A stretch of 40,000 bases of DNA, taken from Bisgaard Taxon 45 (GTDB taxonomy: Bacteria > Pseudomonadota > Gammaproteobacteria > Enterobacterales > Pasteurellaceae). Of this stretch, positions 399-28,683 are shown piece after piece. Below the pieces are notes generated by a model. The model saw nothing but the letters and a program-made list of their open reading frames with translations. It did not search any database and had not been told where the DNA came from. A program made the position numbers and the translations under genes. Each line of letters opens with the position of its first letter. Position 1 is the stretch's first letter. The stretch covers positions 104,925 to 144,924 of the forward strand of contig JBLUWJ010000002.1 in the NCBI GenBank assembly GCA_049888895.1. The letters run 5' to 3'.

Positions 399-746
399 AT
401 GTATCAAGCACTATTATTTGGTTATTTAATCATTTCACTTGCCATCATCGTCCTAATCTTGCTTCAACAAGGTAAAGGCGCAGATGCAGGGGCTTCTTTT
501 GGTGGTGGCGCCTCTGGTACAATCTTTGGCTCTGTTGGGTCAGGTAACTTTTTATCTAAAATGACCGCACTTTTAGCGACAGCATTTTTTGTGATGAGCA
601 TTGTAATTGGTAATATGAATGCGCATCGCGATAATGTAAAACAAGGCAAATTTGATGATTTATCTTCAACAGCTGAGCAAATTCAACAACAACAAAAAGT
701 AGATGTGCCAGCAGTTGAAACAAAAAATAGTGATATTCCTCAATAA
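399..746 (+). CDS. secG: Preprotein translocase subunit SecG
   Basis: MYQALLFGYLIISLAIIVLILLQQGKGADAGASFGGGASGTIFGSVGSGNFLSKMTALLATAFF aligns nearly residue for residue with E. coli SecG (MYEALLVVFL..LQQGKGADMGASFGAGAS..GSGNFMTRMTALLAT). I chose the internal ATG at 399 rather than the ORF-track start at 369 because it matches the orthologue N-terminus. Confidence 0.93.
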   Translation: MYQALLFGYLIISLAIIVLILLQQGKGADAGASFGGGASGTIFGSVGSGNFLSKMTALLATAFFVMSIVIGNMNAHRDNVKQGKFDDLSSTAEQIQQQQKVDVPAVETKNSDIPQ

Positions 747-759
747 TTAAAAAGATTAA

Positions 760-845
760 GCTCTGGTGGTGGAATTGGTAGACACGCTATCTTGAGGGGG
801 TAGTGTCCATCGGACGTGCGAGTTCAAGTCTCGCCCAGAGCACCA
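760..845 (+). tRNA. leuU: tRNA-Leu (anticodon GAG), type II with long variable arm and encoded CCA
   Basis: Acceptor stem GCTCTGG/CCAGAGC, discriminator A, then CCA. The D-arm GTGGAATTGGTAGACAC is as in E. coli leuU. Anticodon stem CTATC/GGTAG with loop TTGAGGG. T-arm GCGAG-TTCAAGT-CTCGC. The secG-leuU order is the same as in E. coli. Confidence 0.92.
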
Positions 846-862
846 TATTAAAAGCGAGTAAA

Positions 863-894
863 AGGCTAGAATTTTGATTTTCTAGCCTTTTTTG
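863..894 (+). terminator. Rho-independent terminator after secG-tRNA-Leu
   Basis: AGGCTAGAA..TTCTAGCCT stem followed by TTTTTT. Confidence 0.8.
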
Positions 895-912
895 TCAATG
901 TGATTTAGCTTA

Positions 913-941
913 TTGACAGGCTTTCAGATTGTGAATATTTA
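913..941 (+). promoter_or_regulatory. Candidate sigma-70 promoter for the ECF sigma operon, overlapping a 7-bp inverted repeat
   Basis: TTGACA (913-918), 17-nt spacer, TATTTA (936-941). TGTCAAT (893-899) and ATTGACA (912-918) form an inverted repeat that includes the -35 element. Found by eye only. Confidence 0.3.
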
Positions 942-966
942 ATGGATTAAACTAGGTAGTGGTGTT

Positions 967-1518
967 ATGCACAATATTTCATCAGAAGAACTAGAAACAA
1001 TTCGTGGGCAAATGTTGAAATTTGCAACGTTGCAATTAAAAGATCCTATTTTAGCAGAGGATGTCGTACAAGACGCTTTTGTTAGCGCATTAAAAAATAT
1101 AGCGAGTTTTAAACGACAATCTGCATTAAAAACATGGATCTTTGCGATTTTAAAGAACAAAATTATTGACTCTTTGCGAGTGAATCATCGTTTTGTGGTG
1201 GAGAGTGAACTTATCACAGACGAAGATGAAAATAGCTTTTTTGATGGTGGACGTTGGCGTAAAGAGTATGCACCCTCGCGTTTACAAGAGAATGAAAATA
1301 CAGTGTATTCTGAGCAATTTTGGGTGCTATTTGAAATGTGTTTGACACGTCTGCCTGCATTGCAAGCAAAAGTTTTCATGATGCGAGAGTATTTAGAGCT
1401 GACATCAGAGGATATTTGTTCGACAGAGCAAATAACAACCTCAAACCTGCATGTGTTACTGTACCGCGCTCGCTTACAGTTGCAGCATTGCTTGACGACC
1501 AAAATGGGGGAGAGATAA
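967..1518 (+). CDS. ECF (sigma-70 family, group 4) RNA polymerase sigma factor
   Basis: 183 aa. Region 2 signature: DVVQDAFVSALKN..ALKTWIFAILKNKIIDSLR. Region 4 HTH: LPALQAKVFMMREYLELTSEDICSTEQITTSNLHVLLYRARLQL. Its stop abuts the next start codon (TAAATG). Confidence 0.88.
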   Translation: MHNISSEELETIRGQMLKFATLQLKDPILAEDVVQDAFVSALKNIASFKRQSALKTWIFAILKNKIIDSLRVNHRFVVESELITDEDENSFFDGGRWRKEYAPSRLQENENTVYSEQFWVLFEMCLTRLPALQAKVFMMREYLELTSEDICSTEQITTSNLHVLLYRARLQLQHCLTTKMGER

Positions 1519-1719
1519 ATGAAATATTGTTTTAAAGTGACGAAATTAATTTCAGAATCTCATGAAAGACCCTTGTCCTTAGTTGAGAGCGTCGGAGTAC
1601 GGTTACACCGTTTAATGTGCCCACAATGCGATAATTTTGGCAAGAATTGTGAAAGCTTAAGTCAGATGATGAAACAATTTGCGCAGCAGTCTGACAACGA
1701 TGAACCCAACCAGAAATAA
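1519..1719 (+). CDS. Small cytoplasmic zinc-binding (ZAS, zf-HC2) anti-sigma factor
   Basis: 66 aa with no TM segment. H-x3-C-x2-C motif (HRLMCPQC). Its start lies directly after the sigma gene stop. Confidence 0.7.
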   Translation: MKYCFKVTKLISESHERPLSLVESVGVRLHRLMCPQCDNFGKNCESLSQMMKQFAQQSDNDEPNQK

Positions 1720-1721
1720 CA

Positions 1722-1730
1722 AAGTGCGGT
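1722..1730 (+). repeat. Uptake signal sequence core AAGTGCGGT
   Basis: Exact 9-mer, embedded in the terminator stem. Confidence 0.9.
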
Positions 1731-1753
1731 GAAAATGTTTAACATTTTCACCG
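1727..1753. terminator. Bidirectional hairpin terminator between the convergent anti-sigma and DUF2063 genes
   Basis: CGGTGAAAATGTT / AACATTTTCACCG perfect 13-bp stem. A T-rich tract follows on the plus strand and an A-rich tract precedes it. Confidence 0.75.
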
Positions 1754-1787
1754 TGTTGTTTTGTGGTTTGGTAAATTTTTTGCTTTT

Positions 1788-2507
1788 TTAGTGTGTAACT
1801 GGGCAGATAACATCCGCCTCAAGCCAATTTGTCCATGCTTGAGTTAAAATCGGTTGTAAACTAGCGTGGTCGACAATGAGATCCGCTAATGCTTGTGACA
1901 GATGTGATAAGGAGGTTGGTTGTTCCGCAAGGTAAGTCAGTAACCAAAAATCTAATTCGGACAGTTTCTGTTCTTTTACTTGAAAGTATCGGTTACGCCA
2001 AATAATGATATGTGATGCGACTTGTTCAATCTGGCTAAAATGGCTAGATAAAAAATCCACCGCATAACTTTTGAGAAAGACAGTTGGCGATAATTGCATT
2101 TCGGTCATTTCATCCCACGCTATCGGATCGGCGAGATTTGCTTGTTCAACCTCAGCAAGCAGTTGAGTATATTCAAAATCCATTAGCGCTAAAACATCAG
2201 CAGAAAAATCAGTTTGTGTTTGACAAAAAGTCAGGAATTCTCCTGCGATATCTTGGAAATAAGGGGATGTGGCTTTCCCTTCTTGGATAAAGCGCTCCTT
2301 CGTTTCTGCCCATGTTGATGCGGAAAGATGATTAGGTGCTTCAACAAAACAACGATCAATAAAACCAAAGGTATTATTACGTACTAAGCGGGCATAGACA
2401 GCTAAACGTTGTGGGGCATAGCCATTTAAGGGGGCTGCATGACCTAGACGTACGGCTTTTGCTAACGCAGCTTGGGTTGCTTTGAGGGTTGAGGGTTTAG
2501 GCTGCAT
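1788..2507 (-). CDS. hvfC: DUF2063-family partner protein of the MNIO enzyme (HvfC/MbnC-like RiPP maturation protein)
   Basis: 239 aa. The N-terminal segment [20 protein letters not shown] resembles the YRNN-type motif I associate with DUF2063. It overlaps the upstream DUF692 gene by 11 nt, which implies translational coupling. Confidence 0.75.
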
Positions 2508-3420
2508 GGCGATTTTCCCCGGTCAGTTTAATGTGTTTTTGTTGTAGTTGGGCAATATGTTCGACTTCTGCATAAAGTTCCGCAAATGGAGGAAAATTAA
2601 AATCACGCTCAAGTAATGTCGGTGGAATATGCGGTAAGCGTTGATAAGCATAGTCTAATAAATCCCAAACATTACCTTTTACAGCTTCACCATGTGTATC
2701 CACTAATAATTGCGGAAGATGACGATATTCACCTTTTATTTTATTAAAGGCTTCATCAGAAGGGGAAACCGGATTTGCGGCACCATGTTCTTCATCGTGT
2801 CCTGCAATATGAATATAGTTGACTCGGCTAACATCAACATGGTCTAAAAAGACATAAGGATTGAGCAAGCCATGATTTACCCCATTTACATAAATATTAT
2901 TCACATCTAAATGAATGCCACAGTGAGCTTCTTGAGCAATGGCGTTTAGAAATTCGACTTCATTCATGGTGCTAGTAGGCGAATGCAAATAATAGGACGT
3001 ATTTTCTAAGGAAATTTGCATACCCAGAAAATCTTGTACATCACGAATACGTTGTGCTACATGTGTTACTGCTTCTTCCGTAAACGGCATTGGGAGTAAA
3101 TCATAAAGATGCCCGTCACATTCGCAATAACTTAAATGTTCAGAAAAAAAGACAGCATTATACTGGGTCATGAGCGCTTTAATACCCTGTAATAAGGCCC
3201 TATCTAATGGCGCTTGCCCACCTAAAGAGAGCGAAAGTCCATGAACAGCGAGTGGAAATCGTTCTGCCGCCTGATCAAATTTATAGCGTGCTGCGCCACC
3301 CATTTTGATCCAATTTTCTGGTGCAACTTCCATAAAGTTGATGACACTGTTGTCGGGCAGTAATAAAAAATCTTCAGCGAGATCACGGCGATACCCTAAA
3401 CCTGCACCTTGTAACATCAT
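2497..3420 (-). CDS. hvfB: DUF692 / MNIO (multinuclear non-heme iron oxidative) enzyme, MbnB/HvfB-like peptide maturase
   Basis: 307 aa. Family-typical blocks: [79 protein letters not shown]. Confidence 0.85.
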
Positions 3421-3479
3421 ATTGACTCCATTATTCTGGTTAAAGCGCTGGTGTAATGTTTACACCAGCAACCTTTGGG

Positions 3480-3770
3480 TTATTTAGACCCACATTTTCC
3501 TTCGCCGCATTTCCCTTCAGCCGCTTTCGCTTTGTGGTCATGTGCACCGCATTTACCCTCACCACATTTCCCTTCAGCCGCTTTTGCTTTGTGATCATGT
3601 GCACCGCATTTCCCTTCACCACATTTGCCTTCCGCTGCTTTAGTTTTCAGGCATTTCCCTTCCATGCATTGCTCAGCTTTCTCTGCTGATTTCATTTCGG
3701 CTTGTGCAGGTGCCGTTGCGGCCATGGTTAATGCACCCGCTAATGCGGCTAACGTCGCTAATTTTTTCAT
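3480..3770 (-). CDS. hvfA: Secreted Cys-repeat RiPP precursor (HvfA-type; six EGKCG motifs)
   Basis: 96 aa. Sec signal peptide MKKLATLAALAGALTMAATAPAQA|EM. The mature part contains CMEGKCLK, then AAEGKCGEGKCGAHDHKAK twice, then AAEGKCGEGKCGSK. SD AGGAG lies 7 nt upstream of the ATG. Confidence 0.85.
   Translation of the reverse strand: MKKLATLAALAGALTMAATAPAQAEMKSAEKAEQCMEGKCLKTKAAEGKCGEGKCGAHDHKAKAAEGKCGEGKCGAHDHKAKAAEGKCGEGKCGSK
3483..3638 (-). repeat. In-frame 57-bp tandem repeat (2 full units plus a 42-bp partial unit) inside the precursor gene
   Basis: Units at 3582-3638, 3525-3581 and 3483-3524. The two full units differ at 7 of 57 positions and all 7 differences are synonymous. Confidence 0.9.
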
Positions 3771-3808
3771 CTTTAATCTCCTATATAGTGTATGAATAAT
3801 TTCGTTTT

Positions 3809-4258
3809 TTACTGATTTAAAGTGGAGGATTTTCGCTGCAATAACGCATCTACAGCGAATATGCCTGCCCCTTGAGTGATTAATGGTAACAAGGTGACGA
3901 TATAAATTAGGGCCATTTTGTAACCATTACTACACACGTTATAACCCGCGCCTGCATGTACGCTGTACCAAGCAACAGCGGTTAATACGGTTAAGCTGAA
4001 TGCACTCCAGCGAGTGAAAAAGCCGAGGATAAGGAAGAACGGGAATACAAGTTCTGCCCCCATCGCCAATGTCCAATTAAGATCGCTTGGGATGATATTG
4101 AAGGGGAAAGGAAAACTTTCTTGTATTTCCATAAACCAGTTTTCGCCTCTCCATTTTTCTTTACCTGATTCAAAAAACTCCCAAGCGAGAAAAAGACGTA
4201 AACCAAGTAGGCCGATGCCCGTGCCAATCCGTTGGATATTGGAATTTGTCTTATACAT
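3809..4258 (-). CDS. DoxX-family integral membrane protein, first gene of the precursor operon
   Basis: 149 aa with about 4 TM segments. DoxX-like N-terminus: GLLGLRLFLAWEFFESGKEKW. Lies 38 nt upstream of the precursor gene on the same strand. Confidence 0.78.
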   Translation of the reverse strand: MYKTNSNIQRIGTGIGLLGLRLFLAWEFFESGKEKWRGENWFMEIQESFPFPFNIIPSDLNWTLAMGAELVFPFFLILGFFTRWSAFSLTVLTAVAWYSVHAGAGYNVCSNGYKMALIYIVTLLPLITQGAGIFAVDALLQRKSSTLNQ

Positions 4259-4536
4259 TATTTACCTCATTGTTATTACAAGTTATCCGTGCCTTGTAAG
4301 CTCATTGATGACACTTTCCGTATGCCTAACGTCAAATGGCATACGGAAAACGCCCTTTTAAGCAAGAATAGCGTCCTTTTCTTTTCTCTGCTTCATACGT
4401 CGAAGATAACACCATATAGTGGGCCTTTTGTGTACATCGCTAATTGCACAGAAAAGTCTAGTTCTTTCTCTATGATCATTCGACATATCGCGTACTGCGT
4501 TTCCTTAATCATCGCGTTACGGTGAGATTAGTCGAA

Positions 4537-4576
4537 GTAAGAAATGGATTTCTTACAACATTTTTTTATTTTTTTT
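4537..4576 (+). terminator. Orphan intrinsic terminator with no credible upstream CDS
   Basis: GTAAGAAAT-GG-ATTTCTTAC perfect 9-bp arms, then AACA, then TTTTTTTATTTTTTTT. The T-tract is present only on the plus strand. Confidence 0.45.
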
Positions 4577-4591
4577 GTGATTGCCTGATAA

Positions 4592-4600
4592 AAGTGCGGT
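4592..4600 (+). repeat. Uptake signal sequence core AAGTGCGGT
   Basis: Exact 9-mer. Confidence 0.9.
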
Positions 4601-4719
4601 TAGTTTTTTCGAAAGAGTGTGGTGAGATTAAGACTTCCTTAATCTTTATCTGCTAACTTAAGGCATGTGAGAGTGGGGATGGTGTTTATTTTTGTGTAAA
4701 ATAAGAGCAAATTTTTAAC

Positions 4720-4728
4720 AAGTGCGGT
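4720..4728 (+). repeat. Uptake signal sequence core AAGTGCGGT
   Basis: Exact 9-mer, 7 nt upstream of the qseB ATG. Confidence 0.9.
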
Positions 4729-4734
4729 CAAAAA

Positions 4735-5400
4735 ATGCGAATTTTATTAATAGAAGATGATGCTTTAATTGGCAATGGGTTACAGATAGGACTCACAAAA
4801 TTAGGTTTTTTAGTGGACTGGTTTCAAGAGGGGAAAACAGGGTTAGAGGCAGTGAAAAGTGCGCCTTATGATGCGGTGGTGTTAGATTTAACTTTACCTA
4901 AAATGGATGGACTCGATATTTTACAGCATTGGCGTAAAGAAAAGTGTGATGTGCCAGTATTAATCTTAACCGCGCGTGATACGTTGGATGAACGGGTGAG
5001 GGGATTACAGCAAGGGGCAGATGATTATCTATGCAAACCTTTCGCATTAGTCGAAGTGGTTGCACGTTTACAGGCATTAATTCGCCGTCGTTATGGACAG
5101 GCGAATCCTGTGATTGAACACAGTTTAGTCTGTTTTGACCCCAATCAGCGGAAAGTCTTTTTAAGGCAGGAAGAAGTCGCCTTAACGACGAGAGAGTATA
5201 AATTATTAGAGTTATTTATGTTGAATAAAGATCGTGTACTTTCTCGCCGTATGATCGAAGAAAAACTTTACAACTGGGATGATGAAGTCAGTAGTAATGC
5301 ACTCGAAGTGCATATTTATAATTTACGCCAAAAATTAGGTAAACACTTTATTCGTACCGTACATGGTGTGGGGTATGCGTTAGGAAAAAATGATGAATAG
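4735..5400 (+). CDS. qseB: OmpR-family response regulator, QseB-like
   Basis: [53 protein letters not shown] is very close to E. coli QseB. C-terminal winged-helix domain present. Confidence 0.85.
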
Positions 5401-6766
5401 GCTTAAGCAAACAAGTTTACGTGCACGTTTAATGGTGACTTTATCTTTAACCGCGTTAGTGATTTGGCTTGTTGCAACTGCGGTGACATGGTTCCAAGTA
5501 AGACAAGATGTGAATGATGTGTTTGATGCGCAACAGATTTTATTAGCACAGCGTTTAGCTTCTGCGAATTTACACAACACGATGATTGCCCGTGCGCCCC
5601 ACGATGTGAATAAACAACTTAAGAAAGTTCGTCATTATGACGATGATGCCCTTGCTTTTGCGATTTTTAATCAGCATGGAATGCTCCTTTTAAGTGATGG
5701 CAATAATGGGGAAAACTTTATTTTTGCCCCACATAGTGGATTTTCAATCAGTGCGATTCGTGACGATGATGATCAGTGGCGCATTTTTTGGTTGCCAGTG
5801 AATCAGGGGAAATGGATTATCGCAGTGGGTCAAGAGGTTGATTACCGAGATGACCTCATCAACCAAATGGTGTTTGGGCAAATGTGGATTTGGTTAGCAA
5901 GTTTACCTTTTTTATTAGGCATGCTGATTTGGGTAATTAGTCGTGAATTGCGACCATTAAAACAAGTGAATGTACAGTTAATGCAACGTCGCCCAGATGA
6001 TACGTCGTTATTGGCCACAGAACATTTGCCGACGGAAATATTGCCCTTAATTGATAACTTAAATCACTTTTTTGAACGAACGGCCGCATTGCTATTACGT
6101 GAAAGACGTTTTACATCAGATGCAGCACATGAGTTACGCAGTCCACTTACCGCTTTACGCATTCAAACGGAAGTCGCACAAATGGCCGGGGAAGATTCAT
6201 TGATGCGTGAACAGGCTTTGCAAAATTTAACCCTCGGGATTGATCGTGCGAGCCAATTGATCGAGCAATTACTGACTTTATCTCGTCTAGACAGTCTAGC
6301 TGAATTAGTGGAAAAAGAGGAGATTCATTGGGACGCCTTAATTTCATCTTTAATCAGTGAGCTCTATTTTGCAGCACAAAAACGACAAATCGCACTTGAA
6401 TTCGAATGTAAGGCCTCCCCCCCTCCACAGCAAGGACAACCTTTTTTATTAGCCTTAATGCTACGTAACTTAATGGATAATGCGATTCGCTATTGCCCAG
6501 AAGGCAGTACAATTACGATTAAGCTTTATGCCGATCGTATTGTGATTGAAGATAATGGTAACGGGGTGAATGAGGAGGACTTAGTGAAATTAGGACAACG
6601 CTTTTATCGCCCAGCAGGCCAAAATGAGAAAGGTAGTGGACTCGGTTTATCTATTGTTCAACGTATTGCAATTTTACATCACTATCAATTACGGTTAGAA
6701 AATGTGACCGACAAAGAGGGTTATATAAATGGTTTTAGATCGTTGATTTTATTAAATAAAATCTAA
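5390..6766 (+). CDS. qseC: Sensor histidine kinase, QseC-like
   Basis: 458 aa. Two TM segments flank a ~130-aa periplasmic domain. H-box [13 protein letters not shown]-box MDNAIRY, G-boxes EDNGNGV and GSGLGLSIV. Overlaps qseB by 11 nt. Confidence 0.85.
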
Positions 6767-26499: not shown

Positions 26500-28653
26500 T
26501 TAATTAACCAATGCCTCAGATTTTAGGTGGTGTTTCAGTTTAGTATATTCCTCAATAACATAACGCTCTGCCCAGGCTTGATCATCAATTTTTTCAATCC
26601 GCACCGCACTATATTTATATTCTGGCGTACGAGACCCTGGATTTAGATGCTCAGCGGTCAATGCGTTACATTTCCCAATCCACCATTGATAGGTCATATA
26701 GCACGCGCCTTTATTTGTTCGAGCACTGACATCGGCGCGAGAAATGACTTTACCGCGAGAATTTAGCACCCAAACTAGCTCACCATGTTTAATACCTAAT
26801 TCTTTGGCATCTAGATTATTCATTTGAACAAATCCCGGTTCATCGGCTAATGCCGCTAAAGATTTACAATTTCCGGTCATTGAACGACAAGAGTAATGTC
26901 CCACTTCACGGACGGTAGAAAGAACCATTGGGTACTCTTCGGAGACATCCTCCATTGGTGGCAACCAATCGCAAGCAAAGAATTCTGCTTTTCCTCCCTC
27001 ACGGTCAAATATTTGTCCTTTATACAAATATTGTGTCCCCTGATCTTCTGGTCCTTCATCGTAGCAAGGCCATTGGATATACCCCATACCTTCCATTTTC
27101 TCATACGTGGCCCCTTTATAAATTGGGCAAAGCTGACGAAGTTCGTCCCAAATTTCTTTGGTATTGTTGTAGTGCATTGGATAACCCATTGCAGTAGAGA
27201 TTTCACTGATAATTTCCCAATCGTGTTTAACATCGCCAACCGGCTCTACCGCTTTATAGAAACGTTGGAATCCACGGTCTGCCGCAGAATAAACACCTTC
27301 ATGTTCTGCACAAGATGTTGCCGGTAAAATCACGTCAGCGGCGGCAGCAGTTTGGGTCATAAAAATGTCTTGTACAATGATAAACTCAAGATCTTCAAAG
27401 GTTTTCTTCATTGCATTAATATCAGGTTCAGTTTGTAACGTATCTTCACCCATAATATAGAATGCTTTGAGATGACCTTCTTTGACGGCATGTGGTACCT
27501 CACTTAATGGTACACCAGGTTTAGTATTTAATTCATCTACTCCCCAAGCATTGGCAAATTTTTTCATGGTCGCTGGATCATTTAAACGCTGATAACCTGG
27601 TAATGTATTATACAGCGCGCCCATATCACACGCACCCTGAACGTTATTTTGTCCACGCACTGGGTTTACACCAACATTGGGTTTGCCTAAATTCCCTGTT
27701 AGCATAGCAATACTGGCGAGTGAACGAACGGCCTCAACGCCTTGACGGAATTGACAGACGCCCATTCCCCACAGAATGGTTGCACTTTCTGCCGTCGCAT
27801 AAGTACGGGCAATATCACGTACCATTTGAGGCTCAATCCCTGTAATGTGTGCGGTAGATTCTGGGGTGTAATTTTTGACGATTTCATACATTTCATCATA
27901 ATTTTCTGTATGTTCATCAATAAATTTCTGATCAACTAAGTTTTCTTCTATAATCACGTGCATCATTGCGTTAAGGAATGCGACATTACTACCATTTTTT
28001 AATGGCGCATAAATATCCGCAATCCTTGCCGTTTCAATTTTACGTGGGTCACAAACAATTATTTTTGCGCCTTTTTCTTTCGCTCTGTTAATACGACGTG
28101 CAACAATCGGATGTGATGTTGATGCATTATAACCAAAGATAAACAAGCATTTTGTCTCTTCAATCTCAACAATAGAGTTTGACATTGCTCCGTTACCGAC
28201 CGATTTGAGCAGACCTGCTACAGAAGGGCCATGTCAGACACGTGCACAACAGTCAACATTATTATTTCTTAATCCCGCACGGGCAAATTTTTGCATCACA
28301 TAATTCGCTTCATTCCCTGCACCGCGGGAGGAGCCTGTCACCATGATGGATTCATTGCCATATTTATTACGAATTTCTGTTAAACGGTTTGCACAGTAGC
28401 TAATGGCTTCGTCCCAACTAACCGGTGTGAATTTTTCGCCACGTTTATAACGAATCATTGGTTGAGTTAATCTTGGTGTTAAAATTTTTGTATCATGCAC
28501 AAAATCCCAACCATAGTATCCTTTTAGACAAAGTTCACCTTCATTGGTGAGACCATTTGCACCTTCAGCTCCCACAATCTTATTGTTTTCGACCAACAAA
28601 TAGATTTTGCAACCAGAGGCACAATATGGACATACAGTAATTACTTTTTTCAT
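26500..28653 (-). CDS. fdhF: Formate dehydrogenase H, selenocysteine-containing (in-frame TGA at 28234-28236)
   Basis: The two track ORFs (28234-28659 and 26500-28185) are one gene. Reading through gives ..NNNVDCCARV-U-HGPSVAGLLKSVGNGAMSN.., which is colinear with E. coli FdhF ..NNVDCCARVUHGPSVAGLHQSVGNGAMSN... N-terminal MKKVITVCPYCASGCKI 4Fe-4S motif. The whole length is similar to E. coli FdhF. Confidence 0.93.
28196..28233 (-). promoter_or_regulatory. Bacterial SECIS hairpin immediately 3' of the UGA codon
   Basis: The mRNA reads UGA-CAUGGCCCUUCUGUAGCAGGUCUGCUCAAAUCGGUCGG. The apical AGCA-GGUC-UGCU mirrors E. coli fdhF UGCA-GGUC-UGCA, with a compensatory U-A to A-U swap at the base pair furthest from the loop. 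Confidence 0.8.
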
Positions 28654-28683
28654 AATCATTGTCCTTTGTTGATGTTGCTTTAT

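Follow-up and report, generated by a model that had tools for sequence, protein, structure and literature searches.

An hvfXABC operon of the oxazolin type in Bisgaard Taxon 45, a lineage closely related to Pasteurella multocida

The operon and the proteins it encodes

Analysis of a 40,000-nt stretch of the Bisgaard Taxon 45 genome (assembly GCA_049888895.1, contig JBLUWJ010000002.1, positions 104,925 to 144,924; referred to below as the window) showed a compact group of four minus-strand genes that is, in all likelihood, the hvfXABC operon of this organism and a direct orthologue of the oxazolin cluster of Haemophilus influenzae. It is an already known and characterised system, present here without departure in gene content, gene order, or motif architecture. 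Exact protein matches assign the window to this lineage of the Pasteurellaceae, which is closely related to Pasteurella multocida; another Taxon 45 genome (L008) carries the same locus, with proteins that are 96 to 100% identical. The operon starts with hvfX (3809-4258), which encodes a 149-aa protein of the DoxX family, and continues with hvfA (3480-3770), encoding a 96-aa precursor, hvfB (2497-3420), encoding a 307-aa multinuclear non-heme iron oxidase (MNIO; formerly DUF692), and hvfC (1788-2507), encoding its 239-aa DUF2063 partner. A 38-nt gap separates hvfX from hvfA, a 59-nt gap separates hvfA from hvfB, and hvfB and hvfC overlap by 11 nt at 2497-2507 (ATGCAGCCTAA), as long an overlap as in P. 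multocida. All four tightly packed open reading frames (ORFs) listed in a first-pass annotation of this DNA, and the 11-nt overlap that it had described between the DUF692 and DUF2063 genes, were found where it had placed them.

All four proteins were named using NCBIfam equivalog models with curated cut-offs. The scores were 135.9 bits for HvfX (cut-off, 80), 163.2 bits for HvfA, spanning residues 1 to 96 of 96 (cut-off, 95), 367.2 bits for HvfB (cut-off, 360), and 166.9 bits for HvfC (cut-off, 142). The family memberships proposed in the first-pass annotation were also confirmed in Pfam: DoxX matched the product of 3809-4258 at 7.7e-24, MbnB_TglH_ChrH (PF05114) matched that of 2497-3420 at 1.5e-95, and DUF2063 matched that of 1788-2507 at 2.6e-16, together with NGO1945_C at 3.5e-13. 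Models of related enzymes fell below their cut-offs. For instance, MNIO_BufB gave 251 bits against a cut-off of 310, which argues against a bufferin-type MNIO, and the MbnB model TIGR04159 gave 37.3 bits against a cut-off of 325, which argues against a methanobactin enzyme. No Pfam DUF2282 match was found in the precursor, none of the four operon proteins matched a PADLOC defence model, and nothing in the sequence contradicted the hvf assignment. The equivalog matches, the gene order, and the precursor layout support the earlier proposal of an MNIO-type metallophore operon of the HvfA/HvfBC kind, making a peptide that is ribosomally synthesized and is modified post-translationally (RiPP). The accompanying expectation that automated annotation would call four hypothetical or DUF proteins is true of the names in this deposit ("DUF692 domain-containing protein," "DNA-binding domain-containing protein," and "DoxX family protein"), but not of the current NCBIfam models, which name all four. 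More recently annotated P. multocida orthologues carry the name "HvfB family MNIO-type RiPP peptide maturase."

The precursor reads MKKLATLAALAGALTMAATAPAQA / EMKSAEKAEQCMEGKCLKTKA-(AEGKCGEGKCG-AHDHKAKA)x2-AEGKCGEGKCG-SK. Its cysteines lie at residues 35, 40, 50, 55, 69, 74, 88, and 93; the first two form a CxxxxC pair (C35/C40) in the N-region of the mature peptide, and the EGKCG motifs start at residues 47, 52, 66, 71, 85, and 90. The three AEGKCGEGKCG units begin at residues 46, 65, and 84 (DNA 3489-3635). A residue count bore out what had been described earlier, a 96-aa precursor with a Sec-type signal and eight Cys residues, six of them in EGKCG. The signal peptide (codons 1-24, 3699-3770, minus strand) was assigned by hand from an MKK n-region, a hydrophobic core at residues 4 to 18 (Kyte-Doolittle, 1.86), and A-Q-A at residues 22 to 24; hand inspection of this region found neither a lipobox nor a twin arginine. 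The mature peptide is composed mainly of K16, G13, A12, E10, C8, and H4, and the KCGExKCG domain model scored 81.6 bits (cut-off, 19.5). The DNA underlying these repeats has a 57-nt tandem period (2.6 copies; score, 228) in which 15-nt periods are nested, and for this reason the pattern is not attributed to chance. Surveys put the EGKCG precursor family at about 2,000 to 3,000 members; the exact 96-aa sequence was absent from the protein collection searched.

Oxidation of the six repeat cysteines would be the work of HvfB, a multinuclear non-heme iron oxidase. It is matched by PDB 3BWW (Histophilus somni) at 7.6e-154, and its residues that are invariant in all 21 homologues include H60, H95, E139, D172, N175, H204, H208, D241, H243, and E271, which, from general knowledge of MNIO enzymes, we take to be the iron-ligand set. 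Of these, N175, D241, and H243 share motifs with the essential residues N175, D242, and H244 of HvfB from nontypeable H. influenzae (NTHi), substitution of which abolishes activity. HvfC, matched by PDB 3DEE (NGO1945) at 3.1e-42, is probably the partner with a peptide-recognition (RRE) domain that is required for HvfB activity, the role established for it in the NTHi work. HvfX carries hydrophobic segments and is a DoxX-family inner-membrane protein; the related Caulobacter system modifies its peptides without a need for DoxX (PMC11626156), and HvfX is expected to be dispensable for it as well. The first-pass remark that the role of DoxX and the physiological metal are poorly defined for this family still agrees with the literature.

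In NTHi strain 86-028NP, the hvf operon consists of NTHI1440, 1441, 1443, and 1444, and the 95-aa HvfA has a Sec signal of 24 residues, contains three AEGKCGEGKCG units, and forms a disulfide between C38 and C43 (PMC11252979). The window shares with it the gene order X-A-B-C and the same four gene families and, within HvfA, the size (96 versus 95 aa), the 24-residue signal, the CxxxxC pair, the three units, and the distance of 10 residues that separates the second N-terminal Cys from the first Cys of the repeats. In effect the layout is the same and shifted by three residues (C35/C40, then C50/C55). The window differs from NTHi in its His-containing linkers (AHDHKAKA) and in a leader of about 263 nt between the promoter and hvfX. 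The Neisseria loci NMB2140-NMB2145 and NGO1944-1948 ("gonophorin") likewise combine DoxX, an EGKCG precursor, an MNIO, and a DUF2063 partner, and the Neisseria sigma-E operon has the same type of extracytoplasmic function (ECF) sigma factor, a small zinc-binding anti-sigma (ZAS) factor, and the same promoter architecture. In Neisseria, however, the operon ends with the sigma and anti-sigma genes, which are autoregulated (PMC2893595), whereas here these genes form a separate convergent unit. The Buf1 and Buf2 systems of Caulobacter vibrioides (bufABCD) also comprise a Sec-exported precursor, an MNIO, a DUF2063 partner, and DoxX, and their products, the bufferins, bind copper, contain 5-thiooxazoles, and are under ECF sigma control (PMC11626156, PMC13097082). 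Their precursors have DUF2282 or 6/12-Cys folded domains where this one has EGKCG repeats, and their sigma/anti-sigma pair, SigF/NrsF, is of a different type; the bufferins are a sister family in the same proposed umbrella class, the "captophorins." More distant is methanobactin MbnABC, in which an MNIO also oxidises Cys residues of a ribosomal peptide into copper ligands. There the product is oxazolone/thioamide, the precursor has a leader peptide and not a Sec signal, the partner is MbnC, and dedicated transport genes are present, whereas the precursor here is HvfA-type and the partner DUF2063-type.

Predicted promoter, sigma factor, and transcript structures

Comparison of the upstream regions of related loci yielded a shared motif, GTAAGAAAT and CGACTAAT separated by a 13-nt spacer, at 4527-4556 on the strand of the operon, with a predicted transcription start near 4521-4523. 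This predicted ECF promoter is the sole match to the motif in the 40-kb window, where 0.00 to 0.01 would be expected, and the motif lies upstream of hvfX in 14 of 21 related loci, including that of H. somni, which has no nearby sigma gene. The site agrees with the Neisseria sigma-E consensus (-35 GTMAGBWTT, -10 CGTCTAAH, 12- to 13-nt spacer, start 6 nt downstream; PMC2893595), apart from two mismatches in the -35 element and one in the -10 element. These features point to 4527-4556 as a sigma-E/RpoE2-type promoter of the operon. A scan for sigma-70 promoters gave fewer matches than in shuffled sequences and none upstream of hvfX. In front of hvfX, P. canis, P. oralis, and Pasteurella sp. PK-2025 each have the sigma-E-type promoter twice in tandem (3960-4059 in locus L003, 4009-4108 in L004, and motifs starting 315 and 177 nt upstream of hvfX in L001). 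The window and P. multocida keep one copy, and the window has a decayed copy where L001 has its second.

A likely activator of the operon is encoded next to it. The ECF sigma gene (967-1518, plus strand; 183 aa) is convergent with the operon and encodes Sigma70_r2 and r4_2 domains. The protein scored 306 bits with PRK12530 (cut-off, 264) and 206 bits with TIGR02943 (cut-off, 162) in NCBIfam, and it is 34 to 50% identical to the sigma factors inside hvf-type operons of Neisseriaceae and Cardiobacteriaceae. It is a probable orthologue of H. influenzae RpoE2 and Neisseria sigma-E. Directly after it lies the gene for a 66-aa ZAS anti-sigma factor of the HrsE/MseR type (1519-1719, plus strand), which scored 57.8 bits with the NCBIfam anti-sigma-E model (cut-off, 50). 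It carries C4-x25-H30-x3-C34-x2-C37, in agreement with the ZAS motif definition C/H-x23-26-H-x3-C-x2-C, and is close in size to HrsE with its 67 aa (PMC7907618), and it has no hydrophobic segment, which argues for a cytoplasmic protein. In H. influenzae, RpoE2 and HrsE are required for the induction of all four operon genes by hypochlorous acid (PMC7907618), and sigma-E dependence of the corresponding operon was shown in N. meningitidis (PMC2893595).

Of the 21 related loci, 12 have the sigma/anti-sigma pair within the operon or adjoining it, and three arrangements were apparent. In the Pasteurella clade, the window included, it forms a separate convergent unit; in Neisseriaceae and Cardiobacteriaceae it is inside the operon; and in H. 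somni, H. felis, and Mesocricetibacter the sigma genes do not adjoin the operon. The H. influenzae genes are likewise apart from the operon, rpoE2-hrsE lying near msrAB, unlike the convergent neighbour seen here. No sigma-E-type motif was found in the window upstream of the sigma gene itself, which agrees with the very weak autoregulation reported in H. influenzae.

The 5' leader (4259-4526, minus strand) folds at -67.6 kcal/mol (z = -2.7) and holds a perfect 17-bp hairpin at about 4322-4366. A last hairpin, at about 4285-4310 with the loop GCACGGAUAA, sits just upstream of the hvfX ribosome-binding site. Conservation of this hairpin and of the first ~35 nt after the promoter extends over Taxon 45, Taxon 46, P. 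multocida, and Pasteurella sp. The stem of the hairpin is altered yet still pairs in Pasteurella sp. (L001) and Taxon 46 (L002), where the A(C/A)GGAU loop is kept. A GGA loop beside a ribosome-binding site resembles a CsrA-type site. A search of 700-5000 against Rfam (E ≤ 1) returned only a tRNA-Leu (760-842) and two chance-level matches, with no known RNA family in the leader. Small leader ORFs of 39, 42, 27, and 29 aa were considered as genes and rejected; they are not conserved in P. multocida or Pasteurella sp., and the leader is therefore treated as apparently non-coding.

Another hairpin, GCUGGUGUAA-ACA-UUACACCAGC inside a longer stem, was found by folding the gap between hvfA and hvfB (3442-3475, minus strand). 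It has a folding energy of -20.2 kcal/mol (z = -3.73), and none of 200 shuffled sequences folded as well. A strong hairpin is present in this gap in 18 of 21 sequences (20 related loci and the window), although its sequence differs between clades, and a T-run often follows it in the relatives. A hairpin between precursor and enzyme genes is the usual arrangement for over-producing the precursor. From its position and folding, this one is probably a partial terminator or a stabiliser that gives more precursor than enzyme mRNA. At the other end of the operon, a terminator scan found one two-way terminator shared by the convergent hvfC and anti-sigma genes (1723-1757, both strands), with 16 pairs counted for the plus strand and 12 for the minus strand. 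Its stem is built on the DNA uptake signal sequence (AAGTGCGGT). Further copies of the Pasteurellaceae uptake signal (AAGTGCGGT or ACCGCACTT) lie at about 4715-4723 and about 4595-4603, flanking the intergenic region between hvfX and its divergent neighbour qseB, and occupy the same places in relatives.

Proposed mechanism and the explanations that compete with it

A mechanism can be proposed from these features and from the homologous systems. A single sigma-E/RpoE2-type promoter about 270 nt upstream of hvfX would start transcription, driven by the neighbouring ECF sigma factor, which the small redox-sensitive zinc anti-sigma factor would hold back. With a sigma factor under such control, the operon would turn on under oxidative stress, for example from hypochlorite. 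The hairpin 3' of hvfA probably raises the ratio of precursor to enzyme transcript. HvfA would be made as the 96-aa precursor, on which cytoplasmic HvfB and HvfC would act with O2, converting each of the six repeat cysteines to a 5-thiooxazole by a four-electron oxidation (-4 Da). The modified HvfA would then be exported by the Sec pathway, cleaved by signal peptidase I after A-Q-A at residue 24, and joined at C35 and C40 as a disulfide. Pairs of thiooxazoles in the mature 72-residue peptide would bind Cu(I), with a nominal total of three Cu per molecule, and the peptide's most likely role would be to protect the envelope against the copper and oxidant stress that the cell meets in the host. 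This role is favoured because of the apparent stress-sigma control, the lack of uptake genes, and the Caulobacter data.

The chemistry in this proposal follows the orthologues. HvfB and HvfC of NTHi install six -4 Da modifications on HvfA, and the resulting oxazolin binds Cu(I) and has been linked to the invasion of epithelial cells (PMC11252979). The modification was first assigned as oxazolone/thioamide and later reassigned to 5-thiooxazole by the original authors; an independent group made the same assignment using alkylation-assisted heteronuclear multiple-bond correlation (PMC13097082). The -4 Da oxidation of Cys to 5-thiooxazole has been shown for orthologues from NTHi, N. gonorrhoeae, and Fontimonas. 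This means that the heterocycle/thioamide product given in the first-pass annotation has been superseded by the work of two groups. The annotation had further proposed to follow the reaction by a loss of free thiols, with all thiols remaining alkylatable if the precursor stayed unmodified. That reasoning is misleading, since 5-thiooxazoles are themselves alkylated by iodoacetamide (PMC13097082) and thiol loss is therefore not a valid discriminator; a mass change of -4 Da per Cys and a chromophore at ~302 to 305 nm are.

Other explanations give the same genes a different function, product, or purpose. The older annotation would make the DUF2063 protein a DNA-binding regulator and the DUF692 protein a sugar-isomerase-like TIM barrel, with the Cys-rich protein unrelated to either. 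It agrees with the deposition of the DUF2063 protein as a "DNA-binding domain-containing protein" and with the regulatory role proposed for 3DEE in its structure paper. However, HvfA is modified by HvfB and HvfC both in vitro and in vivo when the orthologues are reconstituted, and the four genes occur together across about 2,000 to 3,000 loci. On our reading the older annotation is already refuted for the orthologues, and its probability here is negligible. If the operon is otherwise as described, its cysteines might still become oxazolone/thioamide pairs as in methanobactin, which was the original assignment for NTHi oxazolin (PMC11252979) and survives in the NCBIfam model names ("oxazolone/thioamide-modified"). 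This is very improbable given the reassignment described above (PMC13097082), the clustering of HvfB-type enzymes that have DUF2063 partners with the bufferin enzymes and not with MbnB, and the low score of the MbnB model in the window. The peptide could also be a chalkophore that, like methanobactin, scavenges scarce copper rather than protecting against copper and oxidants. The NTHi authors raised scavenging as one possibility, and the high Cu(I) capacity of the peptide would suit it. However, no TonB-dependent receptor or uptake genes were found in or beside the operon, Sec export leads to the periplasm, and expression appears to be tied to an oxidative-stress sigma factor. Related peptides, moreover, protect against excess copper in Caulobacter (PMC11626156) and have been argued to detoxify it (PMC13097082). 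A chalkophore is accordingly considered unlikely, and envelope protection against copper and oxidants remains the favoured, though provisional, role.

Control by sigma-E also has a competitor. A QseBC/PmrAB-like two-component system (4735-6766, plus strand; response regulator at 4735-5400) is divergent from hvfX, and it might be the main controller, repressing the operon, with the sigma-E motif secondary or non-functional. Deletion of the orthologous response regulator gene of P. multocida, PM0214 ("phoP"), raised PM0213 by a reported log2 fold change of 11.79 in the excerpted gene list of that study (PMC4730259); PM0213, listed as a "membrane protein," is probably the DoxX/hvfX gene, judging by the gene numbering. 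The qseBC-hvfX arrangement is syntenic throughout the Pasteurella clade, and the shared intergenic region contains a conserved palindrome, ATTAAGGAAGTCTTAAT, at 4627-4643. The window holds no other copy of this palindrome, which is about 70 nt upstream of the hvfX promoter; all seven Pasteurella-clade loci conserve a form of it some 92 nt upstream of the qseB-like gene. The palindrome may be an operator of the two-component system. A direct-repeat box of the PmrA type was also suspected upstream of qseB and rejected, the site ATTAAG-N5-CTTAAT being a palindrome, and the site is retained as conserved but unassigned. However, the kanR cassette in the PM0214 mutant adjoins the divergent hvfX, and read-out from the cassette could explain the rise in PM0213; because the cassette sits by the divergent promoter region, the mutant result is taken only as a lead. 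The excerpted list (PMC4730259) also contains PM0213 but not the genes downstream of it. In addition, the sigma-E-type promoter is kept in relatives that have no adjacent qseBC (H. somni, H. felis, and Neisseriaceae), and RpoE2 dependence has been shown directly in H. influenzae (PMC7907618). Main control by the two-component system is unlikely on this evidence, but the two controls could coexist.

Several points weigh against the hvf assignment and the mechanism built on it. The margin of HvfB over its cut-off is narrow, and the comparison with NTHi rests on hidden Markov models, published residue numbers, and 3BWW. What is said here of modification, export, and copper binding, and of the transcription start and sigma dependence, is carried over to this organism from homologues. 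The copper stoichiometry of EGKCG peptides may be heterogeneous (PMC13097082), and for the NTHi product itself copper scavenging, copper detoxification, and oxidant defence are all still being proposed as the role. Finally, the T-tail of the hvfA-hvfB hairpin is weak in this window (GCUUUAACC), and for this reason the hairpin may stabilise the RNA rather than terminate transcription.

Variation within the Pasteurella clade, neighbouring genes, and implications

Some variation was apparent in the linkers and in the number of repeats. Both linkers between the units of the Taxon 45 HvfA read AHDHKAKA (3537-3560 and 3594-3617), and among the 120 best family matches the HDH linker was limited to Pasteurella-clade sequences; the linkers of Mannheimia, Glaesserella, and Histophilus have no His. 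The His residues of these linkers could, from the sequence, provide extra metal sites. The repeat tract (3489-3641) contains six EGKCG motifs here and in the other Taxon 45 genome. In P. multocida there are five in HvfA cluster P0050 (91 aa), four in P0052 (78 aa) and P0054 (77 aa), and three in P0053 and P0056 (72 aa each); P0080 is a 53-aa truncated form. The differences in motif count are in-frame losses of 15-nt or 57-nt units, which fits a change in repeat number by slippage on the nested DNA repeats. An odd count would leave one ligand unpaired.

Elsewhere in the window, a tRNA-Leu (GAG) gene lies at 760-845 on the plus strand, between secG and the ECF sigma gene; secG is also beside the sigma gene in relatives of the Pasteurella clade. 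A formate dehydrogenase H-type gene at about 26500-28660 on the minus strand contains an in-frame TGA within CARV*HGPSV that is a selenocysteine codon, and because of this TGA the ORF list gives just the C-terminal 561 aa of the protein. Formate hydrogenlyase or complex-I-like subunits follow the formate dehydrogenase gene at about 29.6 to 39.4 kb.

For annotation, the gain is that three deposited proteins can be named HvfB, HvfC, and HvfX, and the precursor HvfA. The family is of interest in its own right, since H. influenzae needs oxazolin to invade host cells, and the operon is also carried by P. multocida and its relatives, which cause disease in animals and in bite wounds. Within 6 kb, the Pasteurella-clade layout brings together the stress sigma factor, the anti-sigma factor, the predicted target promoter, and the two-component system, which would make the locus convenient for dissecting regulation. 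The adjacent sigma unit, the length of the leader, the His linkers, and the variable repeat number are minor leads specific to the clade. It is possible, if doubtful, that the oxazolin of the Pasteurella clade is a tunable variant, with metal sites in its His linkers, a repeat number set by slippage, and expression set by three inputs. If so, these inputs would be the neighbouring oxidative-stress sigma factor, the divergent QseBC/PhoP-like two-component system, and the leader, whose last hairpin presents its GGA loop beside the ribosome-binding site.

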